From the IMG/VR virus record IMGVR_UViG_3300021124_000007, positions 1 to 43,145 of that record: a stretch of DNA of 43,145 bases. The stretch is one strand, 5' to 3'. Source of the DNA: a virus. Taxonomy: Duplodnaviria; Caudoviricetes. The notes beneath the pieces are model-generated. The model was not told where the DNA came from and made no database searches. It was given only the letters and a program-made list of their open reading frames with translations. This document shows, piece after piece, positions 31,894 through 41,030 of the stretch. Position 1 is the stretch's first letter, and each line of letters opens with the position of its first letter. Made by a program: the position numbers and the translations under genes.

Positions 31894-31968
31894 GTTGGTC
31901 GGGGAAGATGGTAATCCGCAGGTCTCCAAAACCTTGAGAAGTTAGTTCGATTCTAACGACCTTCGCCA
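31894..31968 (+). tRNA. tRNA-Trp(CCA)
   Basis: Cloverleaf, loop CT-CCA-AA, TTCGA T-loop, CCA end; two U-U pairs in the acceptor stem. Confidence 0.85.
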
Positions 31969-33033: not shown

Positions 33034-33582
33034 ATGTTTTATTTTATATACAAAACTACAAATAATATAAATGGAAAATATTATATTGGCTGTCACAAAA
33101 CAGCCAATATAGATGATGGATACATGGGTTCTGGAAAGGCATTATTAAAAGCCATAGAAAAATATGGCAAGCATAATTTTACAAAAGAAATATTGATTTA
33201 TTGCACAACAATTGATGACATGTTTGAAAAAGAAAAAGAAATAGTCAATGAAAGTGTAGTAAATGATGAAAATTCATATAATTTAAAAATAGGTGGTTCA
33301 TCTAATTTTTATTATGTTAATAAAAATAAATTAAATCATAAAACAAATCAACATCTGAAACATGCTGAAAAGTTAAAAAACGATCCAGAGTATGCAAAGC
33401 AATTTAGCAAAAAAATGAGTATTGCTAATAGAAAAAAAGAACATAAAAAAACGGAAAAACAAAAAGAATCTGCAAAAAAAGTTATGACATTATTAAATGA
33501 AAAAAGAAAAAATAATAGAAATCATACAGTAGAAACAAAAGTTAAAATTGCAGCATCAGTAAAAAAAAAGATGGGACGATAG
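33034..33582 (+). CDS. GIY-YIG (Seg-like) homing endonuclease
   Basis: FIYKTTN..NGKYYIG.H..DGYMGSG..KYG..NF.KE..YNL..GG. Confidence 0.9.
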   Translation: MFYFIYKTTNNINGKYYIGCHKTANIDDGYMGSGKALLKAIEKYGKHNFTKEILIYCTTIDDMFEKEKEIVNESVVNDENSYNLKIGGSSNFYYVNKNKLNHKTNQHLKHAEKLKNDPEYAKQFSKKMSIANRKKEHKKTEKQKESAKKVMTLLNEKRKNNRNHTVETKVKIAASVKKKMGR

Positions 33583-33772: not shown

Positions 33773-33849
33773 GCCCGAATAGTCCAATTGGTAGAGGCGT
33801 TCGACTCAAAATCGAAATGTTGTCAGTTCGAGTCTGACTTTGGGCACCA
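33773..33849 (+). tRNA. tRNA-Leu(CAA), short variable loop
   Basis: TTCGA-CTCAAAA-TCGAA arm, CCA end. Confidence 0.88.
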
Positions 33850-34233: not shown

Positions 34234-34863
34234 ATGTTTTATACGATTTATAAAATTACTAATATCATAAACAACAAATATTATATTGGTATGCATCAAA
34301 CTGAAAATATAAATGACAATTATATGGGTTCTGGTAAACTTATTAAAATAGCCATACAAAAATATGGAATTGAAAATTTTAAAAAAGAAATATTACATAT
34401 ATTCGATAACGAAAAAGATATGAAAAATAAAGAAAAAGAACTCGTTGTTTTAGATGAAATGAGTTATAATCTCTGTGATGGCGGGAAAGGTGGATTTGGA
34501 TATATTAATCGTACAGGATTAAATAATAATCACAAAGATAAAGAAGCAATATATGAAAAGGTATCAAAGTCTCTATCTGGCAGACAATTACCACATGTAT
34601 CTTCTCTTCTTAAAGAAAGACATGAAAATGGATTATTTAAAAAAACATATTTTGGTTCTCGTGGGGAAATTGACAAATTAGCTTTAGAAAAAGCACACTC
34701 ACCAGAATCTAATGCAAAACGCATTAAAACATATCGAGAAAAAGAACACCAAAAAGGTGAAAAAAATTCTCAATTTGGTAAACCAAGAAGTGAAGAAACT
34801 AAACAAAAAATAAGAGAATCTCTGGCAAAAACCAGAGAATTAAAAAAATTATCAACAATTTAA
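34234..34863 (+). CDS. GIY-YIG (Seg-like) homing endonuclease with NUMOD3
   Basis: TIYKITN..KYYIG.H..YMGSG, YNLCDGGKGG, RSEETKQKI. Confidence 0.9.
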   Translation: MFYTIYKITNIINNKYYIGMHQTENINDNYMGSGKLIKIAIQKYGIENFKKEILHIFDNEKDMKNKEKELVVLDEMSYNLCDGGKGGFGYINRTGLNNNHKDKEAIYEKVSKSLSGRQLPHVSSLLKERHENGLFKKTYFGSRGEIDKLALEKAHSPESNAKRIKTYREKEHQKGEKNSQFGKPRSEETKQKIRESLAKTRELKKLSTI

Positions 34864-35983: not shown

Positions 35984-36060
35984 TGTGGCTGTAGAGAACC
36001 AGATATCTCACCATCCTCATAAGCTGGAGATAGGGTGTGCAATTCATCCCGCCGCAACCA
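35984..36060 (+). tRNA. divergent tRNA-Met(CAT), possibly initiator-derived
   Basis: Loop CT-CAT-AA, U1-A72, TGCAATT T-loop, CCA end; several mismatches. Confidence 0.7.
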
Positions 36061-36179: not shown

Positions 36180-36253
36180 TGGTCGTTCGTCTATAGGAAT
36201 AGGATACAACTGCGGAGTCGGTTGAGAGATGGGTTCGATCCCCATACGATGGC
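36180..36253 (+). ncRNA. tRNA-like RNA (Glu/Asp-type body) with non-canonical anticodon loop
   Basis: D-arm GTCT..GGAT, arm CAACTG-CGGAGT-CGGTTG, T-arm ATGGG-TTCGATC-CCCAT, imperfect acceptor, no CCA. Confidence 0.6.
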
Positions 36254-36400: not shown

Positions 36401-37099
36401 ATGTTTTATACAATCTATAAAATTACTAATAAAATAAATGGCAAATATTATATTGGTAAACACCAAACTACCAATCTAAATGATGGGTATATGGGAAGTG
36501 GAAAAAATGTAAAAAGAGCAATTGCCAAATACGGCATTGAAAATTTTACAAAAGAAATATTACACACCTATGATAATGAAGCAGATATGAATGCTGCTGA
36601 AAAAAAATTAGTTGTTATAAGTGAAGAAACCTACAATTTATGCGAAGGCGGAAAAGGTGGGTTTAGTCATATTAACAAAAATAATCTATCTGTAAAAAAT
36701 TTAAAAAATCCAAATGTTAGAAAAGTTGCCACTAAAAATTCCAATAAAAAAAGAATAGAAAATTTTAATAATAATACAGTGTTAAAAAAACAGTGGGAAG
36801 ATAATATATCTAATAGTTTAAAATCTTATTATAAAACACATTCTGGAACTTTTACAGGAAAAAGACACCCAAAGGAAATTGAAAATAGAATTGCTGAAAA
36901 GTTAAAAATAACAAATAAAGGCAGCGGTAATCCAAATTTTGGAAAATGTTGGATTAAAAATGTAAAAACAAAAGAATATGGAATGATATTAAAATCTGAT
37001 TTAAATTATTGGATTTCTCTTGGGTGGGAACTTGGACAAATACGAGAAAATGGTATTCCAGTAAAATTGAAAAATAATCAAGACGGTAAGGCACAGTAA
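36401..37099 (+). CDS. GIY-YIG (Seg-like) homing endonuclease
   Basis: TIYKITN..KYYIGKH..YMGSG, YNLCEGGKGG; close paralogue of 34234..34863. Confidence 0.9.
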   Translation: MFYTIYKITNKINGKYYIGKHQTTNLNDGYMGSGKNVKRAIAKYGIENFTKEILHTYDNEADMNAAEKKLVVISEETYNLCEGGKGGFSHINKNNLSVKNLKNPNVRKVATKNSNKKRIENFNNNTVLKKQWEDNISNSLKSYYKTHSGTFTGKRHPKEIENRIAEKLKITNKGSGNPNFGKCWIKNVKTKEYGMILKSDLNYWISLGWELGQIRENGIPVKLKNNQDGKAQ

Positions 37100-38395: not shown

Positions 38396-38905
38396 ATGAG
38401 TAAGCAATCTGAAAATGTAATTAACTGGCGTAAAAGAACAAAACAAAAAATTGTTCAATCAATGGGTGGGTGTTGCCAAATTTGTGGATACTTCAAATGC
38501 GATGCGGCACTTGAATTACACCACATAGACCCAACAAAAAAAGAATTAAGTTTTTCTTCAATTAGAGCAAATCCAAAATCAGCAGAGGCAATTAAGGTTG
38601 AATTAATAAAATGTATTTTATTATGTTCTAATTGCCATAAAGAAATTCATAATGGTTTAATATCTATTCCAGAAAATTATGTGCAATTCAATGAAGAAAT
38701 ATTTGATGGTTGGAAAATTGAAAGAAAAGAACGCAAAGAAAAATTTAAGAAAGATAAAGTATGGCGTCAAAAGATGTTCTTAACCAATCAAGAAGTTTTT
38801 GAAAAGTTAACAACAATCTATAATGGTAATAAATCTGCTATGGCAAGGGATTATGGAGTTACTGAAACTACTATTAGAAAAAGGTTAAAGATGTTAGAAC
38901 GGTAG
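38396..38905 (+). CDS. HNH homing endonuclease
   Basis: CQICG..LELHHID..LLCSNCHKEIH, C-terminal HTH. Confidence 0.88.
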   Translation: MSKQSENVINWRKRTKQKIVQSMGGCCQICGYFKCDAALELHHIDPTKKELSFSSIRANPKSAEAIKVELIKCILLCSNCHKEIHNGLISIPENYVQFNEEIFDGWKIERKERKEKFKKDKVWRQKMFLTNQEVFEKLTTIYNGNKSAMARDYGVTETTIRKRLKMLER

Positions 38906-40217: not shown

Positions 40218-40679
40218 ATGCACAGAAAAGATATATTAGAAAGAAAAGAAGAAATATTAAATTGGATATCCAATCATGAACCAAAGGTATATATTTGTAA
40301 ACAATTAAAATGCAAACCCGATACGCTTGAAACATATTTAAAAAAAATGAATATCTCATATGTTGGCAATCAAGGCAGCAAAGGAAAAAAAATTGATTGG
40401 AAATATGTAGATGCGTTAACTTATGCTAAAAAAGATAATGTATCAGCGCATAAGTTAAGAATTAAATTATTAAGAGATAAAATAAAAATACATTGTTGTG
40501 AAGTATGCAATACAAGTGAATGGATGGGATGCCCGATACCATTGGAATTAGATCACATTGATGGCAATCATTATAATAATGATTTAACCAATTTAAGAAT
40601 AATATGCCCAAATTGTCATGCTCAAACTGATACTCACGCAGGAAAAAATAGAAATAAATTGACAAGGATAACTAACTAG
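40218..40679 (+). CDS. HNH homing endonuclease
   Basis: CEVC..LELDHIDGN..N...NLRIICPNCHAQT. Confidence 0.9.
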   Translation: MHRKDILERKEEILNWISNHEPKVYICKQLKCKPDTLETYLKKMNISYVGNQGSKGKKIDWKYVDALTYAKKDNVSAHKLRIKLLRDKIKIHCCEVCNTSEWMGCPIPLELDHIDGNHYNNDLTNLRIICPNCHAQTDTHAGKNRNKLTRITN

Positions 40680-40695
40680 TATATTATAATAAAAT

Positions 40696-40771
40696 GCGTC
40701 TGTAGTCCAATGGTAGAGACACAAGGTTTAGGTTCTTGGTGGTGGGAGTTCGAATCTCTTCAGACGCACCA
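40696..40771 (+). tRNA. tRNA-Leu(TAG), short variable loop
   Basis: CAAGG-TTTAGGT-TCTTG arm, CCA end. Confidence 0.85.
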
Positions 40772-40780
40772 ATATAATAT

Positions 40781-40941
40781 GCTGCTTTAGCTCAGTTGGT
40801 AGAGCAACGCACTAATCCGTAGCGGGTAACGCTACCAACCAAGTAGCAATGCTTGGTTGCTTGTGGGTATGAAGAGCCTAAAGCTCCCAATGCCGAGAGG
40901 TAATGCGTAGGTCGTCAGTTCGAATCCGACAAGCAGCACCA
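40781..40941 (+). tRNA. tRNA-Thr (GGT after joining) interrupted by an 85-nt insert in the anticodon loop
   Basis: 40781-40813 plus 40899-40941 give a 76-nt cloverleaf with ACGCA-CTGGTAA-TGCGT and CCA. Confidence 0.85.
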
Positions 40942-40946
40942 TTATT

Positions 40947-41030
40947 GGAGGTATGCGAGCAAGGTGCTCAAACGGTCTTGAAAACCGTGCCACCGCAAGG
41001 TTGATGGTTCGATTCCTTGTACCTCCGCCA
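40947..41030 (+). tRNA. tRNA-Ser(TGA)
   Basis: ACGGT-CTTGAAA-ACCGT arm, long variable arm, G73, CCA end. Confidence 0.85.

Follow-up and report, generated by a model that had tools for sequence, protein, structure and literature searches.

A split phage tRNA-Thr gene and a family of short anticodon-loop introns that share a CUAAA hairpin

The split tRNA-Thr gene and its surroundings

The window analyzed here is the entire virus record IMGVR_UViG_3300021124_000007, a stretch of 43,145 nt. It carries genes for tail sheath and tube, head closure, DNA methylases and several GIY-YIG/HNH endonucleases, and on the strength of this gene content it is taken to be a fragment of a large contractile-tailed phage. 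With default settings, ARAGORN reports 17 tRNA genes in the window. The split tRNA-Thr gene is the 18th and appears once introns are allowed, when it is called as Thr(agt) with intron (35,85) at 40781-40941. This gene is the sole Thr tRNA of the contig and is scored as a tRNA by Rfam at 53.5 bits. Because an identical 161-nt gene recurs in two further viral contigs of 9,607 and 23,379 bases (the L003 and L009 series), an assembly error is excluded on sequence grounds; locus L204 also holds the identical gene and is not counted as independent. The gene, its 85-nt insert and the three hairpins named in the original prediction are all present in the sequence (Table 1).

A scan for sigma-70-like promoters returned seven sites against 5.3 expected, and the best-scoring of these ends 9 bases upstream of the tRNA-Leu gene that precedes the split gene. 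Among Thr codons in the long ORFs of the record, ACU and ACA are the commonest (298 and 296 of 755). Several further features of the tRNA array were recorded. The tRNA-Leu genes at 40696-40771 and 33773-33849 are 76-77 nt in length and lack the long variable arm usual for Leu. Three low-scoring tRNA-like genes (31894-31968, 35984-36060 and 36180-36253; Trp CCA, Met CAT and one unassigned) fall below the default ARAGORN threshold. Five free-standing GIY-YIG/HNH genes lie within the array (33034-33582, 34234-34863, 36401-37099, 38396-38905 and 40218-40679), in the same way that the T4 endonuclease gene SegB lies among tRNA genes.

Table 1. Features at the split tRNA-Thr gene, in window coordinates
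Feature	Coordinates	Strand	Basis
HNH endonuclease gene, free-standing; candidate mobility partner	40218..40679	+	PHROG HNH, E 5.4e-29
Sigma-70-like promoter match (11/12) ahead of the Leu-Thr-Ser tRNA cluster	40659..40687	+	Consensus match only
tRNA-Leu(TAG), neighbor, uninterrupted	40696..40771	+	ARAGORN
5′ exon of tRNA-Thr(AGU), positions 1-34, last base A34	40781..40814	+	ARAGORN -i; intron-less allele L379
85-nt intron, site 34/35, long form of the family	40815..40899	+	ARAGORN -i, L379, alignments A2 and A4
P1 hairpin, GGUAA loop, preceded by the conserved (A/U)UCC intron start	40819..40835	+	Fold, covariation
P2 hairpin, 10 bp, GCAA loop	40836..40859	+	Fold, alignment
P3 domain	40860..40899	+	Gap-free alignment A1, pair counts, model R1 match of 44.2 bits
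3′ exon, positions 35-76, CCA encoded	40900..40941	+	ARAGORN, L379 comparison
tRNA-Ser(TGA), neighbor, uninterrupted	40947..41030	+	ARAGORN

The insert was originally placed after U33, in a register that restores Thr(GGT), with a one-base shift to AGT given as the alternative. An intron-less allele decides between the two. Viral contigs were scanned with the 3′ exon (120 loci listed of about 310), and one of the loci, L379, has an uninterrupted gene with the anticodon AGT. This gene is identical at 74 of 76 positions to the exons joined at 34/35, and the two differences form one compensated acceptor pair; the 33/34 join leaves three differences, the third being base 34 itself. Since L379 matches the 34/35 join best and reads AGT, comparison of the alleles places the insert at site 34/35 and makes the predicted product tRNA-Thr(AGU), not Thr(GGU). 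The shifted register was therefore the right one, and Thr(GGT) with the insert after U33 is ruled out. The original statement that the insert has no terminal G holds for the Thr(GGT) register and fails for the 34/35 register, in which the insert follows A34 and ends in G. Comparison with L379 also reveals no target duplication at the insertion site. Among the 120 loci listed of the roughly 310 with the 3′ exon, the base after ACGCACT is T in 68, C in 3, A in 1 and G in none, and one further 3′-exon record, cut at its end, stops at ACTA.

Relatives, fold and junctions of the insert

Relatives of the insert were collected with a series of pattern scans. A pattern built on the 5′ junction returned identical copies only (2 of 11 loci), and a generic pattern for interrupted anticodon loops returned 64 loci, mostly tandem tRNAs, among which relatives with the CUAAA hairpin were seen. 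Scans for the CUAAA hairpin combined with a T-arm gave 14 loci in viral contigs, 109 in GTDB genomes and, in metagenomes, about 200, of which 120 were listed. Members were selected with a T-arm/ARAGORN filter and inspection by eye, and identical duplicates and chance matches were removed. The family that was kept consists of 32 genes with 31 distinct introns, of which 24 are long forms (75-98 nt) and 7 are short forms (35-36 nt), L094 and L228 among them. A scan for the P1 word returned 34 loci, mostly unrelated, and contributed two further members, L542 and L539. The contigs of the metagenome members are unlabelled, many of these members stand within tRNA arrays, and the phage origin of each is presumed; none of the 109 motif loci in GTDB genomes was accepted as a member.

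The 31 introns interrupt ten tRNA types, namely Thr(UGU) (11), Asn(GUU) (4), Thr(AGU), Leu(UAA) and Pro(UGG) (3 each), Gly(UCC) and Arg(UCU) (2 each), and Ala, Ser and Lys (1 each). They are found at sites 32/33 (2), 34/35 (12), 35/36 (4) and 36/37 (13). A model of the 3′ domain, R1, finds a single copy in the window and one or two copies in each carrier genome, all six of the latter being tRNA copies already known. On 44 non-member loci, inserts of the T-loop type included, it finds nothing above 12.6 bits. Two archaeal matches (L269 and L285) were dropped at 12.6 bits with this model, and two tRNA-shaped loci with a CUAAA hairpin in place of the anticodon arm (L092 and L101) were dropped because they break the 17-nt rule described below. 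A BLAST search against annotated phages matched the exons only, with none of 980 records covering 80% of the gene.

The 85-nt insert has a predicted folding energy of -33.9 kcal/mol (z = -4.12), and none of 200 shuffled sequences is as stable. Its P1 hairpin shows double changes at four stem pairs across 12 sequences. P1 is not constant in length, with 8-14 nt to its loop, and UAA occurs in or at the edge of this first loop in 19 of the 24 long forms. The (A/U)UCC start is present in 11 of the 31 members, every one a long form, at sites 34/35, 35/36 and 36/37, and because it is kept across three insertion sites the 5′ end travels with the intron. The stem of P2 is kept in relatives, while its sequence and length are free to vary. 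P3 comprises a 3-bp helix formed with the 3′ tail, a 3-nt bulge and a 5-bp lower stem (40866-70/40890-94), together with a 3x3 internal loop, the GAGC-CUAAA-GCUC hairpin (40874-86) and a 5-nt tail. The last 35 nt of this domain correspond to the entire short-form intron.

Every one of the 31 introns closes with a covarying stem, an internal loop and a hairpin of the consensus RAGC-CUAAA-GCUY. Alignment A1 brings together the final 40 bases of 27 members with no gaps, and in the lower stem and CUAAA hairpin 82% of cells are paired, with 46 double changes; none of 500 shuffles reaches as high a value, and pairing in slid controls is 19-48%. At least four lower-stem pairs form in 30 of 31 members when the two observed stem registers are allowed, against 0 of 31 when the strands are slid by 2 or 3. 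An 11-base core that includes CUAAA is invariant in the 31 members because it served as the search word. The short helix and 3-nt bulge adjoining the 3′ junction retain at least two of three pairs in 23 of the 24 long forms. Judged by these sequence comparisons, the insert and its relatives are a real, conserved and selected family, well defined and new, within the already published kind of short phage tRNA introns.

The 3′ junction lies 17 nt past the CUAAA loop in 29 of 31 members and 18 nt past it in the other two, and all seven short forms start 13 nt before the loop. The bases flanking both junctions vary freely among the 31 members, and 26 of them lack a CCA end, which is present in five of the seven short forms. 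When the 17-nt rule is applied without exception, removal of the insert yields a canonical loop with an isotype-matching anticodon in 23 of 31 members, compared with 9 of 30 after a shift of -1, 7 of 31 after a shift of +1 and no more than 5 at other offsets. Isotype was taken from a vote of the five nearest intron-less tRNA bodies, and because this voter is itself right for only 80 of 120 known tRNAs, 23 of 31 is at its ceiling. The two 18-nt members are among the eight misses. Fully automatic junction assignment gave agreement for 22 of 32, and the stems of five members (L098, L104, L245, L248 and L194) were set by hand for the junction tallies.

Because the 17-nt rule was derived from the same 31-member set on which it was first tested, the two members found with the P1 word provide a better test. 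In L542 the hairpin is GGGC-UUAAA-GCCC with 17 nt to the junction, and removal restores Asn(GUU). L539 has an extra hairpin, and its junction still falls 5 nt past the lower stem, giving Ala(UGC). For many members, the intron calls of ARAGORN imply a different amino acid than the 17-nt rule (His or Ser for Thr, Thr for Pro, Lys for Asn, Trp for Ser), which is a matter for annotation.

The main reason to regard the inserts of the family as introns is that exact removal, leaving the correct isotype, appears to be selected in ten tRNA types, and it is likely that they are spliced from tRNA. The alternative that the RNA stays unspliced and works whole, either as a decoy or inhibitor of host anticodon nucleases or tRNA-binding defense proteins or as a scaffold displaying an RNA, would fit with the independent folding of tRNA body and insert and with the loss of a normal anticodon loop that the insert causes. 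An unspliced RNA, however, would need neither the 7-nt loop nor the isotype-correct anticodon that exact removal gives in ten tRNA types and at four sites, and the intron-less twin L379 retains the same anticodon. This alternative is accordingly rated as improbable, and the scaffold version of it, which had been part of the original prediction, is disfavored.

The same element sits in different tRNAs and at different sites, so it is probably mobile and passes from one tRNA gene to another, perhaps with the aid of neighboring HNH homing endonucleases. Homologues of the HNH gene next to the split tRNA-Thr gene occur at 8 of 41 member loci and at 4 of 207 other tRNA-bearing loci; these four loci, and two matches with no ARAGORN tRNA call, likewise contain tRNA genes with interruptions of other types. 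In matched stretches of 300 bases the gene is found in 3 of 32 cases against 0 of 64 (p 0.035), a weak difference that is uncorrected for relatedness. By analogy with collaborative homing, as presented in the passages of PMC10448857 used here, such a route of spread is plausible for the CUAAA introns.

Known intron classes and other anticodon-loop inserts

The tRNA introns known from bacteria are group I introns, which splice themselves. One explanation that was weighed is a shrunken group I intron, either removed in trans by a complete group I ribozyme or a dead remnant, the relic form being one that the original prediction had proposed. Full group I introns of ~210-220 nt do occupy the same 34/35 site of phage tRNA-Thr(UGU) in L020, L015 and L014 (Rfam group I scores of 65.3, 62.2 and 34.7 bits, respectively), and the present insert ends in G. 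Group I anticodon-loop introns (RF00028), according to the part of PMC3984707 drawn on, also share with the insert site 34/35 of phage tRNA-Thr and homing endonuclease neighbors. They are ~210 nt in length, in contrast to 35-98 nt in the CUAAA family, and depend on a U at -1, a terminal G and a P7 core. The family conserves none of these three. Under the group I rule given in the passages of PMC11915505 used here, the 5′ exon ends in a U that pairs with G in P1. A U ends the 5′ exon in 18 of 31 members, and an A does so in the tRNA-Thr(AGU) gene studied here; the last base of the intron is G in 10 members, the present one included, A in 11, C in 5 and U in 5. Both the U and the terminal G occur together in only 7 of 31. 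The Intron_gpI model (RF00028) gives no match on the insert alone up to E 10, in keeping with the earlier remark that no P7 core is visible, and none in 10 member loci, while L015 and L020 pass the gathering score in the identical search. Compensatory changes point to ongoing selection, not decay. On this evidence from sequence the group I reading, trans-assisted or relic, is largely refuted and is regarded as very unlikely. The exons of L015 differ from those of tRNA-Thr(AGU) only in the anticodon arm, which counts for the group I reading; the same HNH family adjoins them.

Group II introns are defined by a GUGYG start, an AY end and domain V. The starts and ends of the family do not fit this definition, and neither the gene nor the insert has an Rfam group II match. 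Across the gene, the insert and the member loci, Rfam reports no intron family at threshold and, besides IMES-2, only tRNA and JUMPstart noise, so the Rfam search originally suggested for the insert matched no described intron family. The IMES-2 hit (RF02035) is a partial one of 19 bits on the insert alone, compared with a gathering threshold of 54.7, and is absent from 10 member loci. Likenesses of P3 to group I P6/P7 words, the pistol ribozyme and the 11-nt tetraloop receptor were also considered and rejected, because the covarying stems form other pairings.

A further candidate was an intron of the bulge-helix-bulge kind, the substrate of an archaeal-type splicing endonuclease. Archaeal and eukaryal tRNA introns, cut by EndA/TSEN and sealed by a ligase, resemble the family in outline and in their variable anticodon-loop sites, and their motif is defined as a 4-bp helix between two 3-nt bulges that hold the cut sites (both from the sections of PMC7714728 drawn on here). 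The long forms come near to this with the short helix and 3-nt bulge beside the 3′ junction described above. The 4-bp central helix, however, has 0 of 4 pairs in the insert and is complete in 0 of 31 members, which bears out the earlier failure to draw a clean bulge-helix-bulge. In the CUAAA family the junctions appear to be set by the internal fold of the intron, not by exon-intron pairing. The five carrier records, which are incomplete, yielded neither EndA nor RtcB, a bacterial host is presumed, and the window belongs to a tailed phage with bacterial-type genes. A bulge-helix-bulge origin is thus highly improbable.

The closest likeness is to the 'enigmatic' tRNA introns of Lak megaphages (Devoto et al., 2019; PMC6784885), which, in the portions of that paper used here, are short phage tRNA introns reported and left unexplained. 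Both sets are structured anticodon-loop inserts (~80-115 nt in Lak) in large-phage tRNAs, Thr among them, with intron-less alleles, no Rfam intron family, a 5′ hairpin and a 3′ tRNA-like domain. The present insert answers to this general description: it is short, is not of group I, interrupts the anticodon loop in a large-phage tRNA and has an intron-less allele. The Lak introns compared, from Table S6, are AT-rich and end in a tRNA mimic with a true T-loop, whereas no nested tRNA or mimic with a true T-loop lies at the 3′ end of the CUAAA introns, whose terminal loop is CUAAA (UUAAA in L542). Conversely, the CUAAA hairpin, the GGUAA P1 and the 35-nt stand-alone form are absent from the Lak Table S6 sequences compared. 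The portions of Devoto et al. (2019) used here define neither a family nor a boundary rule. No description of the CUAAA family or of a removal mechanism was found in the full-text searches, from which subscription journals are largely absent.

The scans also uncovered several other kinds of insert and motif. Whole tRNAs or near-complete mimics with CCA are nested in the anticodon loop of another phage tRNA in L141, L121, L134, L143 and L117, the examples including Asn inside Lys at 36/37 and CUA-anticodon tRNAs inside Ile. Lak-like inserts with a T-loop hairpin were seen in L106, L107, L108, L118, L120, L123, L125, L131, L132, L136, L138, L140 and L507:12791-12909, and one such insert shares genome G002 with a short CUAAA-type intron. 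Other multi-hairpin anticodon-loop inserts of 67-82 nt, with no CUAAA hairpin, occur in L024/L081, L090, L139, L083 and L130; model R1 gives no score on those of these loci that were tested, and in L024 and L090 the junction likewise lies 5 nt past the last stem. The P1 word is also found, around position 400, inside a longer GC-rich structured element in L538, L549, L551, L563, L569 and L570. This element has shared flanking words, lies upstream of ORFs in high-GC viral contigs, has no Rfam match and is possibly an undescribed RNA motif. In a second context of the P1 word, around position 400 of L550, L559, L560 and L561, a strong hairpin followed by a GGUAA hairpin lies in an intergenic region before a conserved small ORF, with no credible Rfam match in the three loci tested.

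Processing enzymes and a proposed splicing route

The T4 enzymes Rnl1 and Pnk are known for the repair of host-inflicted cuts, not for programmed intron removal. In this repair system, as the part of PMC7824862 used here describes it, an Rnl1-type ligase seals breaks in the anticodon loop of tRNA, and such ligases are common in jumbo phages generally. An Rnl1-type ligase gene was found in all four large carrier genomes (332-561 kb), one carrier copy lying at L514:7245-8465, and none was found in an 83-kb carrier fragment or in the 43-kb record studied here; among controls, one of two genomes searched has the gene, a sample too small to test enrichment. RtcB and the tRNA-intron endonuclease (PF01974) were each found in 0 of 5 carrier records, which are incomplete, and an RNase Z-like gene in 0 of 4 carrier genomes. 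The AAA_33 search for a Pnk-like kinase matched 5 of 5 carrier records and 14 of 14 controls and hence does not discriminate. Across 21 carrier groups, no protein besides the HNH family, Rnl1 and a small GIY-YIG-like (T5orf172) family is common to more than three. The HNH protein was rejected as the splicing nuclease since its gene is absent from carriers G002 and G003 (92% and 97% complete), and excision of the RNase III type was rejected since the short forms would leave a 3′ overhang of 4-5 nt, not 2 nt.

The proposed route starts with transcription of the Leu-Thr-Ser cluster, which would proceed from the promoter match ahead of it. A tRNA acceptor-T minihelix has 12 bp, a 7-nt loop and NCCA, for a total of 35 nt. 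The 3′ domain of the intron, with 13 nt, a 5-nt loop and 17 nt, also has 35 nt and may mimic this minihelix, so that an enzyme measuring from its loop would cut at the equivalent of the tRNA 3′ end. In the short forms the 5′ cut would be set by the foot of the 3′ domain, which is the RNase P position, and both junctions fall where the tRNA-end enzymes RNase P and RNase Z cut. Against the minihelix reading, CUAAA is not a tRNA T-loop sequence, and most members lack CCA. Cuts of the RNase P or RNase Z type leave 3′-OH and 5′-phosphate ends. RNase P gauges distance along the stacked T and acceptor stems and can act on minihelices, and the tRNA elbow is read by RNase Z and the CCA enzyme as well (PMC4810234 and PMC11221534, in the passages used here), while Rnl1-type ligases need 3′-OH and 5′-phosphate ends (PMC7824862, likewise in part). 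Rnl1, with end healing if needed, would then join the tRNA halves.

In the long forms the 5′ junction stands immediately ahead of P1, ~50 nt upstream from the foot of the minihelix, and a plain RNase P model does not explain it. In these forms, the present intron included, the 5′ cut would instead be set by the P1 hairpin. The GG-containing loop of P1 may dock on the P3 loop in the manner of a tRNA elbow; in another model, the two loops with UAA would serve as recognition sites for a phage nuclease. As candidate nucleases, host enzymes of tRNA-end processing and a phage protein would be about level.

The long-form 5′ junction, which known enzymes leave unexplained, can also be read in favor of a new small self-splicing or self-cleaving ribozyme, with P1, P2 and P3 as the catalytic core for cleavage at one junction or at both. 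Conservation of the two terminal loops (the UAA of the first loop and YUAAA in the second) suggests tertiary contacts, and searches of carrier records gave no dedicated nuclease. Seven members, however, are simple stem-loops of just 35-36 nt with the same 3′ geometry, the bases on either side of both junctions vary freely, and no Rfam ribozyme family scored at all; a ribozyme is therefore considered unlikely. Since a 35-nt stem-loop with free junction bases would be an unlikely catalyst of two transesterifications, cutting and sealing by proteins is favored. The conserved family, its covarying stems and its fixed junction geometry lend support to the original idea of a new, protein-spliced small intron type, and it is reasonably likely that the insert is an intron cut out by protein nucleases guided by its own fold, with the exons resealed by a phage ligase of the T4 Rnl1 type.

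On a broader level, and by a narrow balance of judgment, the family would be the footprint of a new pathway by which tRNA is spliced in bacterial cells, one that differs from the group I, group II and bulge-helix-bulge routes. Its mobile introns would carry their own minihelix-shaped cutting signal into any anticodon-loop position, with nucleases that measure tRNA ends or are encoded by the phage, or a new small ribozyme, as the cutters and Rnl1 as the sealing ligase. Its junctions are predicted exactly, its smallest member has 35 nt and there are matching alleles that lack the intron, so that removal can be put to the test directly with short transcripts. If the introns are spliced as we infer, this would be tRNA splicing in bacteria that depends on protein and follows a new rule of recognition, and phage RNA ligases would gain a role beyond repair.
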